The position numbers were made by a program, and so were the translations under genes. Below the pieces are notes generated by a model that was given only the letters and a program-made list of their open reading frames with translations, was not told the origin of the DNA and searched no databases. From Octopus vulgaris (Eukaryota), in contig OX597814.1 in assembly GCA_951406725.2 (NCBI GenBank), positions 145,638,001 through 145,702,000 on the forward strand: a DNA stretch of 64,000 bases, written 5' to 3'. This document shows, piece by piece, positions 6,253 to 62,921 of this stretch (positions within the stretch are counted from its first letter, which is position 1; each line of letters starts with the position of its first letter).

Positions 6253-8958
6253 TTAGTTAGTTAGTTAGTTAGTTAATTTGGCTCAAAAGCAAATAGCAAG
6301 GCCATGTAGGGGGACATGGAGTTAAGTACAGGGTGGTGTTCATGTAAAGAGTTCATGCCACTTGAGGTCCAGGGAGGCTTTGAACAAAGCGGTCGTCGGC
6401 ATCTTCACCATCTCGTCTGGCAGCTTGTTCCACGGATCCGCAACCCGGACGGAGAAAGCTCCTCTCCTGCGATTGAGATGAAATCGTCGCAGGTAGAGCT
6501 TTTCGGAATGACCCCGCAGCCGACGCTCTGGAGCAGGAGTGAAGAACAGCTCTTTCGAGAGGTTACACTTTCCGCTTATGATGTTGTGGGCGAGAATGAG
6601 ATCACCACGGCGGCGGCGTTTTTCAAGAGAATAAAGGTCGAGCGTCCTCAGCCTTTCTTCGTAGGACAAATTTTTGAGACCATGAACCATGCGGGTAGCC
6701 AGCTTCTGGACTCTTTCGAGATGCTGTATGTCTTTGAGGAGATAAGGAGAAGAGGCTTGAATCCCATACTCCAATATGGGTCTCACCAGCGTGACATAGA
6801 GTGGTAGGAATATGGCTGCTGTGAGCATTCCGAATGACCGTCGAATCAAGAACAGAATTCCGCGTGCTTTGTTGGCAGCATGGACGCACTGGGCCGAAGC
6901 CGAAAAGGAGGAATCCACCAAGATACCTAGGTCCTTTACCTGATCGGTCCTCTCCAGCAGCAGACGACCCGGCTCGAAATCAAGTTGAGTTGCAGGAGTA
7001 GAGCCGACAGGCAGATGACAGCACTTTGACACGTTCAGACACAGGTCCCAATCGTTAAACCACTTCCAAATTTGGTGGAGGCATCGACGAAGATCCTCTA
7101 TATTACCTCGAGGAGCGACCAGTTTGATATGGTCGGCAAATAGAAGGGTGTGTTGCGTGAGGTCGTCGGACAAGTCATTTATGAAGACTAAGAACAACAA
7201 GGGCCCAAGCACTGAATCTTCAGGCACGCCACTGCTCGCACTGGAGACGTCGGACCGCGAACCATTAACTTGGACTTGGAAGGAGCGATCTGAGAGGAAG
7301 GCACCAACCCATCGTACAATATCCTGATGGAAACTATATGCTTGAAGCTTGACAAGTAATAGGCGGTGGTTTACCGAGTCAAAAGCTTTGGCAAAGTCCA
7401 GTAAAACGATGTCAACAGCATCACTATCATCGAGGATGCGCGTCACCAATACTTCCATTACTAGTAAGTTGGTCAAGCATGATCTCTTCGGCACGAAGCC
7501 GTGTTGGGAATCAGAGATAGAGGCTGTGTTTAGGAGGTGGAGCATCATACTTTTCTTAAGGATGGTTTCGAACATCTTGCTGATTATTGATGTAAGGGAA
7601 ACCGGTCGGTAGTTAAGCGGGTCTTCGCGGCTCCCTTTCTTGAAAATTGGGCAGATTATCGCTGTTCTCCAGTCTGCAGGTATAACACCCGTCGCCAATG
7701 ACTTATTGAATAGTCGTGTTAAGGGCTCGCAGATGACCGGAGCCAACGCTTTGATAACCCGTGTGTGTATGCCGTCAGGGCCGTGACCCTTGTTGACATC
7801 GAGGCCTTGAATAACACGTTTGACTTCGTCCCGCGTGATGACCAATCGAAGCATTGGAGGTACCGATCTATCAAATGGAGGGGGTTCACGACCATCATCT
7901 TGTTTGAAAATAGTTGAAAAAGCCTCGGCAAATAATTGACTCTGTTGATAAGGGTCCTCAATCGATACGCCTGTTGAGTCCACCAACGTTGCAATCTGGT
8001 TGTTCAAGCGGGAATTCCGCTGGACATGGGCAAAGAAGGTTTTTGGATTGCTACTGGCATTTGCCGCGATTTTGTATTCATAACTGAAGCGTTCTTTCTT
8101 TTCAATTTTCACGGCTCGGTCTCGTTGAGTTTTGTACACCTCAAAAGCTGCAGTCGAATCCAGATTTTTGAATTCAGCCCAAGCAATATCTCTGAGTCGA
8201 CGTTCTCGTTTAACCCTCTTCGTCACCCAGGGCTTGTGTTTCTTCCTCTTGGGAAGCCCAACGGGAACTGCCTGGTCAGTCAAACAGATTACATATGCTT
8301 TGAGGGATGACCATAGTTCGTCAACTGAGGACAACATCATCAGGGATCGCTAGTTCAGAAGCGCGGAAGCCTCGGTTAGAGTTTCAAGATTAATTGCAGA
8401 GAAGACTCTACGTGGCAGCGAAGTAGTCGTGGGCGTAGAAAAAGTTGTGTGCATGACGAACTTCAGGACCGCATGATCACTCTTGGCAAGAGGGGCGCAC
8501 ACAGATACGTCTGACACTGATCTTGGATAGCGGGAGAATACCAGATCTAGCATAGATGGCTGCTGCCCAGACCGATGCCTTGTCGGATATTCAACATGTT
8601 GCGATAGAAAACAATCTTCAGCCACGTCAAGAAGGGCCTGGCCGAACAGGGAAGATGTTGTACAAATTGATGCGGGCCAATCGATCGTGGGAGCGTTGAA
8701 GTCTCCTAGTACCAAACAGTCATGCGAAGCTGAAACGAATCTTATCGCTTCGAGTAAATGAGCATCGTCCTGGGGGTCGGCAAGAGGCGGCCTGTAGACA
8801 GCCAACACGGGCAGGCAAAACTCAGATAGGCTCAGCTTGCAATAGACGGCATCGAATTTTGTTGTAGGCTGAGCATTAGTGGGTAGAATACCGCTGGACG
8901 GTTTGTGCTCAGACTTAACATACACAGCAACACCCCCACCTCGCCTTTTTCCTCTCTG
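6253..8958 (-). mobile_element. 5'-truncated CR1-clade LINE with (CTAA)n tail
   Basis: APE then RT coding sequence, short 3' UTR, (TTAG)n on the plus strand at ~6253-6274; flanked by TA/TATG repeats. Confidence 0.92.
6340..8958 (-). pseudogene. CR1 ORF2 (apurinic endonuclease + reverse transcriptase), disabled
   Basis: APE motifs RGGGVAVYVK, VYRPP, LGDFN, LDLVF, SDH. In-frame TAG at 8350-8352. RT motifs NYRPVSLTS, DFAKAFD, GVPEDSVLGP (normally PQGS), FADH (normally FADD). CR1-type C-terminus LERVQKLATRM...YEERL...RRRRGDLI...RGH...WNKLP. Confidence 0.92.
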
Positions 8959-10210: not shown

Positions 10211-10342
<132 letters not shown>

Positions 10343-10533
10343 AATACATGAGTGTATTTTTACCTTGTTAAAAATTAACACGGAAAAATAAATAAATAGT
10401 TACCAGGGCAGCAAAAATCTCACAAGTAAAGGTGTTGTAACTCCTTGTTTATAAAGTTAGAAACTTCGTGTTTACGTTGAATATTTTGAATAATATGAAT
10501 AAAAAATGGAGTTAACGCAGGTGTAATCAAATA

Positions 10534-10630
10534 TTTTTACTTTCGACACATGTTTCGAATATTCCACTGATACTATTCAAAAGAATAAATGGTATAAACA
10601 ATGCAATCTTCTCCTCAGGAAAGTGAAAAA
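10534..10630 (-). ncRNA. Type I hammerhead ribozyme of Penelope element 1
   Basis: Minus strand: tttttcactttc-CTGAGGA-gaagatt...aatattc-GAAA-catgtg-TC-gaaagtaaaaa. GUC triplet; predicted cleavage between 10545 and 10544. Confidence 0.85.
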
Positions 10631-10825
10631 AACGAAACTCGTCAATAAGACATTTTAGCAAAAAATGATGGATTTGTATAGCGATAGACAGAACGCTATT
10701 AATATTGTTTAAAAAAACGTTATATGATATAACGTCATAAGTAGCTAACAGAAAGAGTAAAGATATTAATAGTGAATGTTAAATATAAAGGAAATTAAAG
10801 TTTAAATTATATATAATGATAGAGA

Positions 10826-11791
10826 CTACTTATATGCACTAAATGTATGTTTTTGCCAATGCTTACATCTGTATGCTCGCTCTATAACCGTGTTTACTAG
10901 AGTATTTTTAGAAAAGATAATGAAAAATAGCTCAGAATTACAGAGAAGACAGAATTTCTTGCCTTTGTCATATGCTATCGAAATTGAGAGGATCAACCAT
11001 TCTAAATGAAATTGTTCATTGTGGTCTTTTAAATCCCAAATCAGTTTGCTGAGACCGGTACTATTCCGTTTATTTCTATCCCTAAATGTTGAGTAATGGA
11101 TAGAAATTCTTTTAGATAACTCTAACGATGTGCTTCCAATGTAAAATCGTACTTTATTACGAGTACTGATTATACACTGGTATATAGAATTTTTAATCTT
11201 AGAGTTACTTGACATAAACTTAATTCTATTGGAATTGACTTCAGATACAATAACCTTGTTATTAATATTTCTAGAGGGTTGGATGGTATTAGCTAAATTA
11301 ATGTTAGTATTAGTAAATGTATTAATATTTAACAGTTTTTTATTATGAGAAGATATGATTTGCAAGAGATTTTTTGTGTTTGAAAAACCTATCCTAAACT
11401 TATGTGAATTGATTATAGAGTAATATCTAGAATTGTTTGGAAAATTCCTAGCAATAGCTTGACGAAACAGCAGTGGAAGATTAGACTTAATTTGTCTCCC
11501 GTAAGGAATTATTAACCAAATATTTTTACTAGTATTCATAGCGTAATTACTTTTGAAGGTGTTATATTTACTTTGAGATCGATAATAGGGGATTAAATAA
11601 GGGTTATCTGCCTTCATTCGCTTTGTATCGGTGCGTAAGTTACGTTTCTTATCAATAATCCTTTTACGACTAGAAATCTTATCTACATTATTGAATTTAC
11701 AATTAGACTGAGCAGAATCAATGTAGAAAATTTTTTCTGTATAACCTGCTTTGATTAAGGCAGAGTTATAGAATTCAGCGTTATTATTGAA
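10826..11791 (-). CDS. Penelope-like polyprotein C-terminal part (RT thumb, linker, GIY-YIG endonuclease), 5'-partial
   Basis: The frame stays open upstream of the listed 263-aa ORF (FNNNAEFYNSALIKAGY, a PLE thumb motif). Then IISSHNKKLL, SIYQC...FYIGST...KR..H..TF...STGLSKLIWDLK...CLLCNSE...N...CKH. Confidence 0.88.
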   Translation of the reverse strand, partial: FNNNAEFYNSALIKAGYTEKIFYIDSAQSNCKFNNVDKISSRKRIIDKKRNLRTDTKRMKADNPYLIPYYRSQSKYNTFKSNYAMNTSKNIWLIIPYGRQIKSNLPLLFRQAIARNFPNNSRYYSIINSHKFRIGFSNTKNLLQIISSHNKKLLNINTFTNTNINLANTIQPSRNINNKVIVSEVNSNRIKFMSSNSKIKNSIYQCIISTRNKVRFYIGSTSLELSKRISIHYSTFRDRNKRNSTGLSKLIWDLKDHNEQFHLEWLILSISIAYDKGKKFCLLCNSELFFIIFSKNTLVNTVIERAYRCKHWQKHTFSAYK

Positions 11792-12197
11792 ATAGAATTA
11801 AGTTTATGTCAAGTAACTCTAAGATTAAAAATTCTATATACCAGTGTATAATCAGTACTCGTAATAAAGTACGATTTTACATTGGAAGCACATCGTTTTA
11901 GAGTTATCTAAAAGAATTTCTATCCATTACTCAACATTTAGGGATAGAAATAAACGGAATAGTACCGGTCTCAGCAAACTGATTTGGGATTTAAAAGACC
12001 ACAATGAACAATTTCATTTAGAATGGTTGATCCTCTCAATTTCGATAGCATATGACAAAGGCAAGAAATTCTGTCTTCTCTGTAATTCTGAGCTATTTTT
12101 CATTATCTTTTCTAAAAATACTCTAGTAAACACGGTTATAGAGCGAGCATACAGATGTAAGCATTGGCAAAAACATACATTTAGTGCATATAAGTAG
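11791..12197 (+). pseudogene. Inverted second copy of the GIY-YIG domain, frameshifted
   Basis: Reverse complement of 10826-11230, with CATCGTTTTAGAG versus CATCGTTAGAG (+2 T) near 11895. Confidence 0.85.
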
Positions 12198-12463
12198 TCT
12201 CTATCATTATATATAATTTAAACTTTAATTTCCTTTATATTTAACATTCACTATTAATATCCTTACTCTTTCTGTTAGCTACTTATGACGTTATATCATA
12301 TAAAGTTTATTTAAACAATATTAATAGCGTTCTGTCTATCGCTATACAAATCCATCATTCTTTGCTAAAATGTCTTATTGACGAGTTTCGTTTTTTTCAC
12401 TTTCCTGAGAAGATTGCATTGTTTATACCATTTATTCTTTTGAATAGTATCAGTGGAAAAAAA

Positions 12464-48235: not shown

Positions 48236-50876
48236 CAGTAGTTTTATTTTTATAGCGTGCTTTCACTTCACTACCGAGCGCAGCTCTGTGTGCCTTGGGT
48301 ATGTGCTGTGATTTGTTGTGATGCTCTGATGGTTATTGTATGGAAAGTGTTTTGTGTAGGATGTGTGCAGTGCCTAGTAGTGCAATTTTCTGTATGTTAT
48401 ATGTGTTTGTAAGTACTGGTGTTTTTGTTATGTATTTGTCTGAATATTTTTTTATCATGCCTAATGCACCTACTATGATAGGAATTGTTTCTGTTTTCAG
48501 ATTCCACATTCTAGTTACCTCTATTTCCAGGTCTTTGTATTTTGAGAGTTTCTTCATTTCTTTTAGAGACACGTTGTCATCTGCCGGTATTGATACATCA
48601 ATTAGAAAGCATTTTTTCTTCATGATCTCTGACAACTATATCTGGTCTGTTGGCCTTAATTTCTCTATCTGTGTGTATCGGCATATCCCAGAGTATGGTT
48701 GCTTTCTCGTTTTCTGTGACCTTTTCTGGTGTGTGCCTATACCATCTTTTTTCTGTTGTTATTCCATAATGTTGGCATAGCTTCCAATGTATGTAGGTTC
48801 CAACTCTGTCATGTCTGTGAATATATTCCTTCTTAGCCAGGACTGGGCAGCTAGAGATAATATGATTTATTGTTTCTTGTCCATCTCCACATATTCTGCA
48901 GTTACTTGTAATATTTCTGTTCATTACATGTTTTTGGTAATTTCTGGTGGGGAGGCTTTGGTCTTGTGCTGCAATTAAAAATCCCTCTGTTTCTGCTTTG
49001 AGTCCTGATCTTCTCAACCATTGCTGGGATTTTTCTTTGTCTATTTCTTTTGCGTTTAGTTTAGTGCAGTATTTACCATGAAGGGGTTTTTCTTGCCATC
49101 GTTTTATCATGGCTCGTTGCTGTTCTATTTTTAGTTTGGATTTCATTTGTTTTATAGCTTTTGTTGTTTCTTCATCATCTTCTTCTTCTTCGTGTTTATT
49201 AGGTGGTATGATTTCTTGTTTGTATTTGTCAGCTTCCTTAAATACTGAGAACAGTTATTTGTTTTGCTCGTGTTTTGCTGCTATCTGTATCAGTTTTCCT
49301 TCCTTCTGGAGTAGGTATTTTTGCAGTCCTATGGTGGTTATTTTATAGTGGTTTTCCAGCTGTATAAGGCCTCTACCACCTTCGATACGTTGTATATATA
49401 GTCTTTCTATGTCAGATTTTGGGTGGTGCATCCTAGATCCTGTCAGTATTTTTCTTGTTTTCCTATCTATTTTGGACAGTTCATTTCGTGTCCAGTTAAG
49501 GATATTGTAGCTGTAACTTATAACTGGGACAGCTAAAGTGTTGATACCTATTATCTTGTTTTTAGCATTGAGCTCTGTTTTTAGTATTGATCTAACTCGT
49601 CTATAATATTCTTTTTTTATTTTTCTCTTTCATTTGTGTGTGTTGTGTCTTGTCTAGTTCATGGATTCCTAAGTATTTGTAAGTTTGGCTTTGGTCTAAT
49701 TCTTTTATTTCATTTGCTTCATCTAGTGTGATGTTGTTACTCTTAACTAGTTTTCCTCTCTTCATGGTTACTTTGGCGAATTTTTCTAATCCAAATTTCA
49801 TATCTATTTCTTTGGTAAATCCATGAACTGTCTTTAATAGTGTTTCCAGCTGTTTGTCATTTGCAGCGTATAGTTTTAGGTCATCCATATATAAAAGGTG
49901 GCTGATCGTTTTGCCGTAACATTTATATCCGCATCCAGTTCTATTTCGCATATCAGATAGAGGTGACAGTGCCAAGCAGAAAAGGAGTGGAGAGAGCGTG
50001 TCTCCCTGGAATATTCCTCTTCTAATGGGGATGTCTTTGGTTTTCATGAGTCCCCCTTTTGTTTGGAGGTGTAGGACTGTTTGCCATTTATTCATAGAGT
50101 GCTCTATGAATTTTATGATTGTTGGTGCTACTTTGTTAATGGCTAGTGTTTCGAGGATACATGTGTGGGGGATGCTATCAAACGCTTTTTTGTAGTCAAT
50201 CCAGGCCATACTGAGGCTTTTCTTCTTTCTGTGGCTGTCTTCAGTTACGGCTTTATTAATCATTAGTTGATCTTTACAGCCATATGAGCCTTTGCGGCAT
50301 CCTTTCTGCTCTTCTGGGAACAGCTTGTTTTCGTCCAGGTGCTTGTTCAGCCTTTGCGATATCACTGCAGTAAATGCCTTGAACATAGTAGGGAGGCAGG
50401 TTATTGGTCTGTAGTTTTCTGGTTTTGCTGTTTCATTTGATTTGGGAATTAAGATGGTTTTCCCCTTCGTGAGCCATTCAGGCATTGTCCCTGGCTCTGC
50501 TAGTATGCTGTTAAAGTTTTCAGCCAGCTTTTTGTGCATTCCCGTTAGATATTTCAACCAGAAGTTGGGGATCTTGTCATGCCCAGGTGCCTTCCAGTTG
50601 CTTAGTTTTTGCAGTGCCTGGGTGACCTCTTCAGTTGTTATGGGGGTCCAAAGTTATTCAGATGCCGAGTTTGTTATTTTGATACTCCTTTTTTTTGGCT
50701 GTTCGTTCGCCGACCATATTTCTCTCCAGAATTCTTCCAATTCTTCTGCCGTTGGTGCTGCAGTGACTCCTATTTTATTTTTTCCCAGTTCTTGGTAGTA
50801 CTTTTTGGAGTTGGAGTTGAACTTTTTGTTCTGTTCAAAGAAGCGTTGGCGTTTCTCGTACCGGCGGATCCTTATT

Positions 50877-58200: not shown

Positions 58201-58686
58201 AAAATAGAAATTCTTAAATTACAAACTGACATAACACACCAAAGGCAAGCTTATCAAAGTAACAATTGTAGCTTCAAATTTCGCTAATCCAAAACAAGGC
58301 ATTCATTTCATTTGATATTAAACCAAATGTTGGTATAGAAAATAAGTTTGTCCTAGCAACTAAAACGTAGAAAAACGAATAATACGTACTAGCACACGCA
58401 CAACACACACACACACACGCACATATATATATATATGTATATATATATGTATGTATATATATATATATATATATATTATGTGAAATAGAAAGATGAATAA
58501 TCTTGTAGTAGATTAATCAAAAGTTTAACCGATACCTTAGTAGCAAAAATCACAGCAGTAAAACAGCACGGTTGGAGGTACAACCATATGGTGTTGCAAC
58601 CGTGCGTTGGTGCGGATAATTGAAATTAGAACATTATTGGTGAATTGAAGAAATGGAGCTGAACGCAGATTGAACAGAAATCGTTT

Positions 58687-58780
58687 TATTTCATTCTACA
58701 CGTGTTTCGAAAGGCACAAATTACCAAAATCCGATGGAATAATGGGACCATATTGTGTCTTTCTCTTCAGGAAGAAAATA
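58687..58780 (-). ncRNA. Type I hammerhead ribozyme (left arm of element 2)
   Basis: Reverse complement of 60078-60171. Confidence 0.88.
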
Positions 58781-59048
58781 GGAAATCCGTTGGAAAAACA
58801 AAAACAGAACAGAGGCGGAGCAAAAACAAATCGAACTATGCTCCTAAGAGCCCATGGCGAAACTGTTTATCAGTGTATGTTGAGAACCGGTGGCTGAAGA
58901 ATTCAACGGGTCAAGCATCGGTCAATCATGTGGGTGAGGGTGCGTAGATGTTCTTTGTGACCGAGAATAAAGTTCTGACTATTTAAAGAATATTGGATGT
59001 TTTATAAGGGGCGAGAAAAAATCTGCTAGGATTAGTTTCTGAAATTAG

Positions 59049-59492
59049 AACTGCGTTCCTGTCACTATATTCACAGAAACTAATCCTAGCAGAATTAGAT
59101 TCACGTCGGCGAACTCCAAGATCAAAAACGCCGTCTACCAATGCAAGGTTTACACGGACTCAGATGTCTTCACTTATGTAGGGGCCTCATCCTCAAGATT
59201 GTCTTTGCGTGTCTCCAACCATTACGCAACTTTTCGGGACATGAACAAGCGCCAGACCACGGGACTCAGTAAGCTAATATGGCGACTGAAGGATACGAAC
59301 TTAAGCTACAGGCTGGAATGGTCCATTTTGTCGGTGGCCCTCCCATTTGATAGGGGCAGAAGGCAGTGCAACCTTTGTGTCTCCGAACTCTTCCATATTT
59401 TGTTTGCCAGAGGCCGGATGGTAAACGGGCTTTTACAGTCGGCTTTTCGATGCCCCCATTGGCGGCGTTACACTTATCTGGCTTTTAAATAG
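59049..59492 (+). CDS. GIY-YIG endonuclease domain of Penelope element 2, 5'-partial
   Basis: Open frame upstream of the listed ORF: VTIFTETNPSRIRFTSANSKIKNAVYQCKVYTDSDVFTYVGASS..LSLRVSNHYATF...TTGLSKLIWRLK...CNLCVSE...N...CPH. Colinear with element 1. Confidence 0.88.
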   Translation, partial: NCVPVTIFTETNPSRIRFTSANSKIKNAVYQCKVYTDSDVFTYVGASSSRLSLRVSNHYATFRDMNKRQTTGLSKLIWRLKDTNLSYRLEWSILSVALPFDRGRRQCNLCVSELFHILFARGRMVNGLLQSAFRCPHWRRYTYLAFK

Positions 59493-60077
59493 CGTTTATA
59501 AATAATACCGGCACCCATAGCCCTTGGTAACAAATTATGAAATAGCCTTTAAGATATCTACGATTAACCACTGCAAGGGGAATTACTCCTGTAAGACAAA
59601 CGGGGCTTGGTTTTTTCACAGCGGGGGTTTCCTTGACAAGGCAGGCTTAGATGAACACACACACACATAAAACATGATATATATTTTTTTTTTTCTGCCA
59701 CCCAACGGTTATCACGGCAGTAGCCACTGACAGCCGAACGATCAAACGCACACACGTACACAAAAAATGTTTTCTACCCCTACGCCAACACACACATATA
59801 TAGAACAGTATACACACACACACGTCTCTAAGTAGATTTTTTCTCGCCCCTTATAAAACATCCAATATTCTTTAAATAGTCAGAACTTTATTCTCGGTCA
59901 CAAAGAACATCTACGCACCCTCACCCACATGATTGACCGATGCTTGACCCGTTGAATTCTTCAGCCACCGGTTCTCAACATACACTGATAAACAGTTTCG
60001 CCATGGGCTCTTAGGAGCATAGTTCGATTTGTTTCTGCTCCGCCTCTGTTCTGTTTTTGTTTTTCCAACGGATTTCC

Positions 60078-60171
60078 TATTTTCTTCCTGAAGAGAAAGA
60101 CACAATATGGTCCCATTATTCCATCGGATTTTGGTAATTTGTGCCTTTCGAAACACGTGTAGAATGAAATA
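60078..60171 (+). ncRNA. Type I hammerhead ribozyme (right arm of element 2)
   Basis: tattttcttc-CTGAAGA-gaaagacacaa...ttgtgcctttc-GAAA-cacgtg-TA-gaatgaaata. Stem II 10/11 pairs, GUA triplet, predicted cleavage after 60161. Confidence 0.9.
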
Positions 60172-60220
60172 AAACGATTTCTGTTCAATCTGCGTTCAGC
60201 TCCATTTCTTCAATTCACCA

Positions 60221-60253
<33 letters not shown>

Positions 60254-61214
60254 TATAGGGAGAGAGAGAGAGGGGGAGAGAGAGCAAATATCCATCTCTA
60301 CCCCTTACAGCAATGTTATACACAAAGTAGGAATACCTGAGGCATAATGTTCTGCTTTTATTATGTAGACAGATAGGAATCTCGTGCCTTCAGGGAAGGT
60401 AACTGTGTGTTCTCTCTAAGAATCAAACAGGAGTCATCTTTGAGCTTAAGTGAGAATTGATCCAGCGTTAATTTGATCATTCTTCCATTGTCAGAATATG
60501 TTGGGTTGATAAGTCAGATGGTAGGTTCCTATTGAAGTTTGTTTCGTGACCACCCACACTGTTAGTGGTAGGCTTGGATTCAAGAAATTCTGCTTTGAAA
60601 CTTGAAAAGGTAATGTTCTTTCGTAGGACGTTAATTTTGTTGAGACTATTGCAGGAGTGACTGTGTATGTAGGATTCATGAAGTTAAAAGTAATCAATGG
60701 TAGATGGTTGTTTAACTTTAAATATAAATATTCATAGTATTATTCGCGTGAACATAAATAAGTCTGGTTATTTTATAAGTTTAATTATGATATTTATGCA
60801 TGATTGGGAGAAATTATGGCAGCATTTGAATTTCATATTTGTTAGTAGATTAAAAATACCTCTTTAATATCATCAGGCACCTGTTCATTAACGGGCAATT
60901 CTTTGTGCGAAATTCTAAAATGAGAGCACACTGATTACGAAAGTTGAAGGTTCGTTAATTCAGGGACTTTAAGAAGTTATATTAGCTTTTGGCGATAGAC
61001 ATATGATGTAGAATTTCATTTAGCTTTGGGATTTATTTTTGTTTTGTTTTGTTTTTTTATCAAAGAGTTGACATGTATGGTGAAGTCGTGGATGAAGAGA
61101 GTATCAAAACAATGGATCTCGTATATGGATAGATTTGCACCAGGTGATTGCTGCAATCTAGAATGTGAGAGTAAATAATATTACTGACAGAGCGCATACA
61201 CTGTCTTCTCATTG

Positions 61215-61686: not shown

Positions 61687-62149
61687 AGGCTAGACTGCGG
61701 ATGTTTCAAACAAAGATTTTTGACACCTAGACCTTACTTTCTATAGTATGTATGTGTGTGCGCGCGTCTGTGGAGACAACTATGCCTAGAAAAAAAAGAC
61801 AGCAAAAAAACATGGAATACAATGAATACAACTTTCTGCTTAATGCATATCTCTCTGCTTTCTGATTAGTGTATATTTCTCACGACCGCGGACCGAGTAA
61901 ACAATATACTCACTAGATCTGATAGACTGACTTTAAAAAACTCGGATAATGTACAGTTGTTTATTTGAATGCAAATAAATATATATGCTCCCTTGCGACA
62001 GTCAGTAGGAGATGGTAGGGAAGAGAAGAATTTAGTTAAGAAGTTTGAATGTTGTACTGTAAGTAGAGTATTTGCGCTGGAGCGTATTTTTGACATGCAC
62101 TGTTTCATCGATGAGCGTGTGTGAATGTACGCCTGCATATATCCTTGTG

Positions 62150-62441
62150 GATGAGCGAGAAACCAACAAAACTCCTTGTATCACCAAAGATGAAGTGAAG
62201 GCTAGGATTATGGCAGCATTCGTAAACTTAAATAAGGAGACTGTCCTGAAGAGTTGCAGGAGATTACAAAGTTGTTTGGAGGCCGTGGTTGAAGCCAATG
62301 GTGATTTTATTCAATAAATTTACTCTTTAGCATTTCAAGATATTTTTTATGTAATGTTGGTAAATATATCTATTAAATAAGATGTCAATGTTATTTTTAT
62401 TTTTGGATAATTTAGACGACAGTTTATTCACAGTAGACTGT
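62150..62441 (+). mobile_element. Tc1/mariner (DD37D-like) transposase 3' relic, copy 1
   Basis: ERETNKTPCITKDEVKARI...CRRLQSCLEAVVEANGDFIQ, then an end at TTTATTCACAGTAGACTG-TA. Confidence 0.75.
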
Positions 62442-62569
62442 ATGTATATACATATATAGGTATATCTACAAACTCATTTTAATGGTGAGCAGTAAGTATT
62501 CAAGTGTTTTTATGTGGACTGTTTACCACCACACTAGAACCACACAAGCAGTAGAACCTAGTCATGGAC

Positions 62570-62916
62570 ATCAGACAATTTTGAGACCACACCACCCCTA
62601 ACATCAGGCCACATAACTCTCCAGACTACCACTCTCTTGATTATTATGTGTGGGGTGTAGTTGAACGAGTAACTAACAAAACTCCTTGTATCACCAAAGA
62701 TGAGCTGAAGGCAAGGATTATGGCAGCATTGGCCAACTTAAAAACGGAGAACGTCCTGAAGAGTTGCATGAGATAACAAAGTCGTTTAGAGGCCGTGGGT
62801 GAAGACAATGGCGATTTTATTGAATAAATATTGGTAAACATATCTATTAAAATGAGATGTCAGTGTTATTTTCATTTTTGCATAATTTAGGAGACAGTCT
62901 ATTCACAACAGACTGT
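62570..62916 (+). mobile_element. Tc1/mariner (DD37D-like) transposase 3' relic, copy 2
   Basis: PHNSPDYHSLDYYVWGVVE resembles WPPxSPDLNPLDYxVWG; otherwise parallels copy 1. Confidence 0.75.
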
Positions 62917-62921
62917 ATGTA

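Follow-up and report, generated by a model that had tools for sequence, protein, structure and literature searches.

A Foldback Copy of a Hydra-Like Penelope Retroelement with Two Hammerhead Motifs in the Genome of Octopus vulgaris

Architecture of the foldback

The window analyzed here, a 64,000-nucleotide stretch of Octopus vulgaris DNA (assembly GCA_951406725.2, contig OX597814.1), contains a foldback element at 58478-60223 with the following features:

58454..58476, unstranded: left (TA)n target tract
58478..58634, minus strand: one-sided 157-nt tail, native element sequence past the end of the right copy, covered by family contigs in 4/4 runs compared
58635..59027, minus strand: inverted arm, the 3' UTR/pseudo-LTR of the inverted copy
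58653..58679, plus strand: four A>G sites (58653, 58663, 58676, 58679), editing-like, family level, presumed-RNA run X4
58691..58776, minus strand: left hammerhead, core 58770, predicted cut after 58697, matching the right hammerhead exactly over 60060-60190
59022..59072, minus strand: inverted 51-nt ORF piece, the inferred end of the inverted copy
59073, unstranded: one filler base at the head-to-head junction, as inferred from loose contig ends at 59072 and 59074
59074..59492, plus strand: 5'-truncated ORF end with a GIY-YIG endonuclease domain lacking an upstream start codon
59493..59830, plus strand: single-copy 3' UTR stretch
59831..60223, plus strand: direct arm (3' UTR/pseudo-LTR), terminus 62 nt past the predicted cut site
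60082..60167, plus strand: right hammerhead, core 60088, stem II 60095-60149 (55 nt), predicted cut after 60161
60221..60247, unstranded: right (TA)n target tract, sharing a few A/T bases with the element end

The arms (58635-59027 and 59831-60223) are each 393 nt long and show 2 differences, in agreement with a previous reading of the sequence alone (hereafter, the sequence-only reading), which described near-perfect inverted arms of ~390 bp. One of the differences (59025/59833) sits within junction microhomology, so that the true substitutions between the arms number one (58823/60035). The same reading assigned the locus to Penelope-like elements (PLEs), and the anatomy and the GIY-YIG fold described below bear this out; the segment 58478-58634 is the element's own 157-nt tail, not flank. 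The left and right flanks of the foldback are unrelated to each other. The tail contains a small hairpin (58568-58607), of which a variant form is present in a divergent subfamily represented by loose contig ends.

The native order of the pieces is given by a 1463-nt contig (X2 record 13): upstream ORF, reverse complement of 59022-59072, 59094-59830, and arm. Read on the minus strand, 59022-59072 matches the linker of the homolog P0003, and its overlap with 59074-59093 makes up a 20-nt junction palindrome. The direct copy is truncated at 59074, and it lacks two stretches found in the inverted copy, the 157-nt tail and 31 nt of the ORF. The segment 59040-59051, which matches the tail, was considered as a templated insertion and dropped because it is native ORF sequence.

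No host gene was detected among 148 of the 156 non-repetitive frames of at least 62 aa (the other 8 lie within the element); these frames gave three Pfam matches, all to RT or zf-RVT, and short exons would escape such a search. RT frames are present at 49604-50653 and 6343-8349. Two repeat pairs, 31253-32085/45478-46312 and 37963-38509/48217-48763, are near-identical (95%, direct, and 99%, inverted, respectively) and are located among LINE remnants with (AAT)n. A duplicated fragment at 62063-62921 contains a short frame without a Pfam match that resembles a DNA transposase remnant.

The endonuclease, the hammerheads, and a second foldback

The frame at 59049-59492 is open over 147 aa; its first ~9 codons are a junction artefact contributed by 59022-59072, an inverted piece of the element's own ORF. 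Because the first Met comes only after the GIY-YIG motif, a complete protein is not encoded. The open GIY-YIG frame noticed in the sequence-only reading otherwise holds up. A Pfam search with the 147-aa frame gave no match, a PDB sequence search with its profile returned nothing below E 1.8, and a Foldseek search with its model found no match at E ≤ 0.001, with GIY-YIG chains nonetheless ranking 1-7. The AlphaFold model of the frame (pLDDT 88.9, from an 84-row alignment) has as its top four structural matches the GIY-YIG nucleases I-TevI, T4 EndoII, PD-T4-3, and UvrC, the best being I-TevI (Z 9.5, rmsd 2.4, 89 residues aligned). The motifs encoded in 59074-59492 comprise Y/G/R/E/N plus CxxC..E..N..CxH, and 18 of the 84 aligned members match the Pfam GIY-YIG family at E ≤ 0.1, the query itself being negative. 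Judging by the model, the frame is a C-terminal GIY-YIG endonuclease as in endonuclease-positive (EN+) PLEs. It has 2679 relatives at E ≤ 0.001; longer homologs sought among 87 candidates were not found, and metagenome loci yielded two weak matches at 25-26% identity, with a Pfam scan giving nothing.

Each arm contains a complete type I hammerhead, as the sequence-only reading had noticed, with the full core and stems I-III in type I order, and we obtained the same predicted cut positions, 60161 and 58697. Both cores consist of CTGAAGA, G10.1-C11.1, GAAA, the stem III 8-mer ACACGTGT, and a GUA site; stem I comprises 3 bp, 1 mismatch, and 6 bp, and the stem II region is 55 nt long in both. The stem III 8-mer is self-complementary, and its self-pairing was computed at -10.3 kcal/mol, consistent with the earlier remark that a palindromic stem III suits dimers. 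In the Rfam comparison proposed at that time, Hammerhead_1 aligns over the whole model at 60082-60167, with a score of 14.8 bits (E 0.65 in a 171-nt search) that is below the gathering threshold of 34. At the gathering threshold, the whole 64-kb window gave no Rfam match, and an E-value scan of 58400-60300 (1.9 kb) gave 33 matches, none of them a hammerhead. Both cores are intact, which is expected anyway at the age of the element.

The window contains one more foldback, from a related family:

10340..12458, minus strand: second foldback, arms 10562-11230 and 11791-12458

The arms of this element span 669 nt with 98.7% identity (4 substitutions and 2 small indels), and its endonuclease is 52% identical to that of 58478-60223. 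The ORF at 11797-10829 is an intact 323-aa thumb-linker-endonuclease frame that aligns with the RT-EN homolog P0028 over 231 aa (32% identity, E 2e-30), the RT core being absent from the window; both window copies are truncated. The second element has one whole hammerhead (core 10618, 55-nt stem II, GUC site, predicted cut after 10545), which scores 27 bits against the same gathering threshold of 34 (E 7.6e-5); its core is conserved, the changes in stem I compensate each other, and the palindrome is of the wobble type. The inverted arm ends within stem II. The insertion in stem II probably accounts for the sub-threshold Rfam scores of the hammerheads of both elements (14.8 and 27 bits).

The inverted arm of the second element also shows a 2-nt insertion in its ORF copy and a 3-nt deletion beside the hammerhead core. 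The tails of the two elements (58478-58700 and 10340-10545, both on the minus strand) end ~200-220 nt past the predicted cut and have short motifs in common just after stem I and near the end, with no common reading frame visible by eye. These motifs are possible protein-binding or RT-start signals.

Probable formation of the foldback and predicted fate of its transcripts

The foldback is probably the product of a recent insertion into (TA)n by a Hydra-like Penelope retroelement of very high abundance, the inserted copy being 5'-truncated and non-coding, likely derived from two target-primed cDNAs joined head to head, with the hammerheads being passengers of the duplicated 3' end that are predicted to be inactive in dsRNA. 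All four ends of the two window elements are located within 6 nt of (TA)≥4 tracts, which make up 2.1% of the window, (TA)n insertion being judged here from two insertions. By this route, the RT-endonuclease of the element would nick both strands of (TA)n, and a first cDNA would start 62 nt past the hammerhead cut site and stop at 59074. A second cDNA would start 219 nt past the cut site, giving rise to the 157-nt tail; at a 6-nt microhomology it would skip ~740 nt of the template before stopping 31 nt further upstream, after which the two cDNAs would be joined via one filler base.

The route is reconstructed from a single junction, and self-priming could yield a similar product. Under that scenario, the element and its passive hammerheads would be the same, but one cDNA, or an antisense template, would have snapped back and switched templates to give the foldback. 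The 20-nt palindrome at the junction, the kind of feature for which self-priming has been proposed (PMC3846280), and the single substitution between the arms are compatible with such an origin. However, the 157-nt tail and the 31-nt ORF stretch unique to the inverted copy cannot have been copied from the direct cDNA alone, (TA)n is present at both ends, and the arms of the second element differ by 4 substitutions and 2 small indels. The extra tail and ORF favor two cDNAs over a simple snap-back, and we consider self-priming unlikely.

Of the four cDNA ends deduced for the two elements, three are within ~50 nt of one homologous spot, the linker end (59022-59093; 11230), which may be due to chance. 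A truncation hotspot at the linker end, which both elements suggested, is unsupported given that seven other junctions are scattered.

Contigs of 4 of 24 listed sequencing runs (X1 and X9, DNA; X2 and X4, presumed RNA) were compared with 58478-59830, and these other junctions come from the DNA runs. The summed depth in the DNA runs, which is not equivalent to copy number, is ~4e4 to 1e6 per bin compared to 30-87 for single junction contigs, indicating that the family is very abundant in two organisms. Inversions recur across the family: of the 11 joints listed, 7 mark inversions in other copies and were found in the DNA runs. Each of the 7 is represented by a single contig whose shorter side covers 24-30 letters at 88% likeness, and is flagged as weak. 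The inverted arm includes a whole hammerhead at 2 of these 7 junctions, a part of it at 2, and none at 3, a scatter expected of a random by-product.

Nearest-neighbor folding, a model that leaves tertiary contacts, Mg2+, proteins, and co-transcriptional kinetics outside, places the active monomer 6.0 kcal/mol above the minimum free energy, at ~1e-4 of its own ensemble. The 117-nt motif and its antisense form a duplex at -206 kcal/mol. In the fold predicted for the full foldback transcript, 389 arm positions are paired in register, in keeping with the ~390-bp stem envisaged in the sequence-only reading for a read-through RNA, and 74 of the 74 ribozyme bases are paired in the stem. A transcript from either strand contains the antisense arm first and has no second sense ribozyme; since the one remaining copy is in antisense orientation, there is no dimer partner in cis. 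The competition between cleavage and stem formation proposed in that reading is thus predicted to be lopsided. Were the locus read through, the antisense arm would be made first and would then zip up the sense arm, and the foldback RNA would be a substrate for ADAR or silencing rather than self-cleaving. The real role of the hammerhead would be played where tandem copies are intact, either as a dimer or with the help of proteins. The two hammerheads of the foldback are, according to these folding predictions, likely to be passengers locked in dsRNA.

Transcription and editing were assessed in the same runs. Among the 24 listed runs, 11 from 5 studies are RNA by our guess, and these contain 0.59-0.77 of the sampled words. 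In X4, A>G changes at 58653, 58663, 58676, and 58679 reach 45, 41, 32, and 21%, respectively, compared to at most 0.033% in the DNA runs X1 and X9. The four sites are on the element's antisense strand, inside the arm, 18-44 nt from the predicted cut site, and none of the four has a 5' G (neighbor bias P = 0.10). A>G and T>C together account for 20 of 52 places in X4, whereas the DNA runs give 11 of 49 (P = 0.09; most T>C sites are not among the places listed). X4 carries the native joint and comes without matched DNA of the same individual. The alleles that the copy at 58478-60223 carries at 58914, 59324, and 59537 have frequencies of 0-4% in both DNA runs compared to 36-100% in X4, which suggests a very young, expressed subfamily, and a near-identical copy of 58478-60223 may be expressed. 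Presumed-RNA contigs run unbroken over the predicted cut site (X2 record 9 and X4 record 16); contigs cannot show RNA ends. The earlier suggestion of dsRNA subject to ADAR is thus weakly supported at the level of the family: in one presumed-RNA run, a signal at four arm sites that is nearly absent from the DNA runs is compatible with editing of such stems.

A more ambitious interpretation is that the foldback is a functional switch: the stem and self-cleavage would be in competition, and A-to-I editing would weaken the stem, thereby releasing or tuning the ribozyme. In addition to the two intact cores and the four X4 sites 18-44 nt from the cut site, with their 21-45% A>G and no 5' G, X4 shares rare alleles at 58914 and 59537 with the copy at 58478-60223, and cephalopod editing is known to target repeats (PMC9068888). 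However, the stem exceeds the ribozyme fold in stability by ~200 kcal/mol, there is no dimer partner in cis, two whole hammerheads are retained at only 2 of the 7 other junctions and not in the second element, presumed-RNA contigs pass over the cut site, and the editing signal comes from one run whose RNA status is guessed, with P = 0.10 and P = 0.09. The copy is young, so selection on the foldback is unlikely. We therefore regard the switch as very unlikely, and the same holds for its extended version, an ADAR-controlled ribozyme switch of a mobile, very high-copy Hydra-like subclade without the zinc linker, in which foldback transcripts would be A-to-I edited beside the cut site, gating ribozyme cleavage or silencing of the family. 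Frequent foldback copies may supply edited dsRNA by which the family is marked for silencing.

The least credible origin, which we consider extremely improbable, is that a high-copy repeat became chimeric in the assembly or the library: palindromic chimeras are known in long-read data and none of the 32 contig pieces listed from the four runs spans the junction of 58478-60223 (the best run has 0.80 of the sampled words, and the absence carries no weight), but this junction is structured, with a jump, a filler base, and a one-sided tail, both ends are in (TA)n between two unrelated flanks, independent DNA contig sets show other inversion junctions, and the same layout is documented for PLEs.

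Relationship to known Penelope-like elements

The PLE literature describes the components of this layout. A 5'-truncated inverted copy and a 30-40 bp tail are typical of PLEs, and Penelope-13_HM has an inverted copy and hammerheads on both strands (PMC8557442, including its Files S1 and S2). Inverted pLTRs, common junction palindromes, N-rich inserts, and antisense small RNAs have been reported (PMC3846280), along with opposite-strand hammerhead pairs 100-700 bp apart, including those in Schistosoma, and low, dimer-dependent cleavage by PLE hammerheads (PMC4209133). Nicking and extension of both strands by a PLE protein, with reverse transcription starting at two internal sites, has been shown, and the PLE hammerhead required protein and was dispensable for insertion in vitro (PMC11167929). 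By analogy with these elements, the foldback layout is best viewed as an ordinary PLE by-product, not a special device; its presentation in the sequence-only reading as a special arrangement was overstated, given that such integration by-products are known (PMC8557442, PMC3846280, PMC4209133). Retrozymes have been linked to pLTRs in a preprint (10.64898/2026.07.22.740005). A non-LTR retrozyme was considered for 58478-60223 and rejected because the monomers of such elements are non-coding and arranged in tandem, each with a type I hammerhead, whereas here the two copies face each other and there is an endonuclease frame.

The Hydra clade has been defined by CxxC/CxH, a CxCx5C linker, (TA)n insertion, and canonical hammerheads (Craig et al. 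2021, PMC8557442). The pseudo-LTR inverted copy with a one-sided tail, as in EN+ PLEs, is present here, the tail being longer than described; both window elements contain CxxC and CxH around the conserved E and N, with no CCHH, as is characteristic of Hydra, and, of 150 homologs, 135 have CxxCxxE and 112 have the CxH extension. The Hydra trait of (TA)n insertion is seen at 4/4 ends in two insertions. The CxCx5C linker is absent from the second element, the inverted ORF piece of 58478-60223, P0001, P0002, P0003, P0009, and P0022. A crude regular-expression survey of the linker in 152 proteins classified 44 as CxCxnC, 13 as degenerate, 17 as "other", and 4 as linker-less (one of them falsely), with 42 being too short and 32 having no usable motif.

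We built an endonuclease-only tree of 46 rows, consisting of the two elements and 44 of the top 45 matches (P0007, a 5692-aa repeat, was dropped), that was midpoint-rooted, without an outgroup or named Hydra references. In this tree, the two elements, P0001, P0002, P0003, P0009, P0022, and P0012, the linker of which is unreadable, make up the 8-row side of a branch with 100/99 support among linker-bearing homologs. Judged by these motifs, the family is Hydra-like rather than a filed Hydra member and probably represents a subclade that has no linker yet still targets (TA)n, and whose hammerhead, with a stem II of 55 nt, has been overlooked. In the literature searched, which included few subscription journals and left Repbase outside the scope, we found no description of the present family or of editing-gated PLE hammerheads.

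The new points are modest, namely, the linker-less Hydra-like subclade in (TA)n, the 55-nt stem II, and the 157-nt tail. Because the family targets (TA)n in the absence of the cysteine linker, it lends itself to testing the association between linker and microsatellite targeting drawn in PMC8557442, where Chlamys elements, which lack the linker yet still prefer microsatellites, are a partial precedent. The hammerhead with its 55-nt stem II scores under the Rfam threshold, and PMC8557442 searched core spacings of 7-50 nt, a range that it exceeds, so similar ribozymes may be undercounted.

The closest known system is the Hydra clade of EN+ PLEs, which shares with the present family the C-terminal GIY-YIG domain with CxxC and CxH, the lack of CCHH, (TA)n insertion, and a 3' type I hammerhead, and includes, in Penelope-13_HM, a 5'-truncated inverted copy with hammerheads on both strands (PMC8557442). 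It differs in the CxCx5C linker, which is present in 9/9 rows of Fig. S7 of that paper and absent from the 58478-60223 family, and in the stem II region, which by our own count is 10-24 nt in 26 File S2 rows and 55 nt here; the tails of PLEs are 30-40 nt there, compared to 157 nt in 58478-60223. Hydra-1_Obim from Octopus bimaculoides (PMC8557442) has a Hydra-type endonuclease, a (TA)n preference, and the CTGAAGA core in common with our family, but it retains the cysteine linker and has a 22-nt stem II region and another stem III, and so belongs to a different family.

Adineta vaga Penelope elements resemble the foldback in their inverted pLTRs, tail on one arm, junction palindromes, and microhomology deletions, as well as in the asparagine-rich inserts between RT and EN and antisense small RNAs; they differ in having short tails and visible target-site duplications and are not called Hydra-type in the paper, which is older than the clade (PMC3846280). 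The Poseidon element of Anolis (PAc) similarly has two internal RT starts giving a tail, an AT-rich target, and both strands nicked and extended, but these starts are separated by 30-40 nt and lie within the beginning of the ORF, and its hammerhead is minimal (PMC11167929). Metazoan PLE hammerheads also show the dimer-suited palindromic stem III and opposite-strand pairs (PMC4209133). A stem II region of comparable length, ~53 nt, is listed for Selaginella PLE-X1_sMoe in File S2 of PMC8557442; in contrast to PLE-X1, the long stem II described here belongs to an animal EN+ family and measures 55 nt in two elements with 52%-identical endonucleases.
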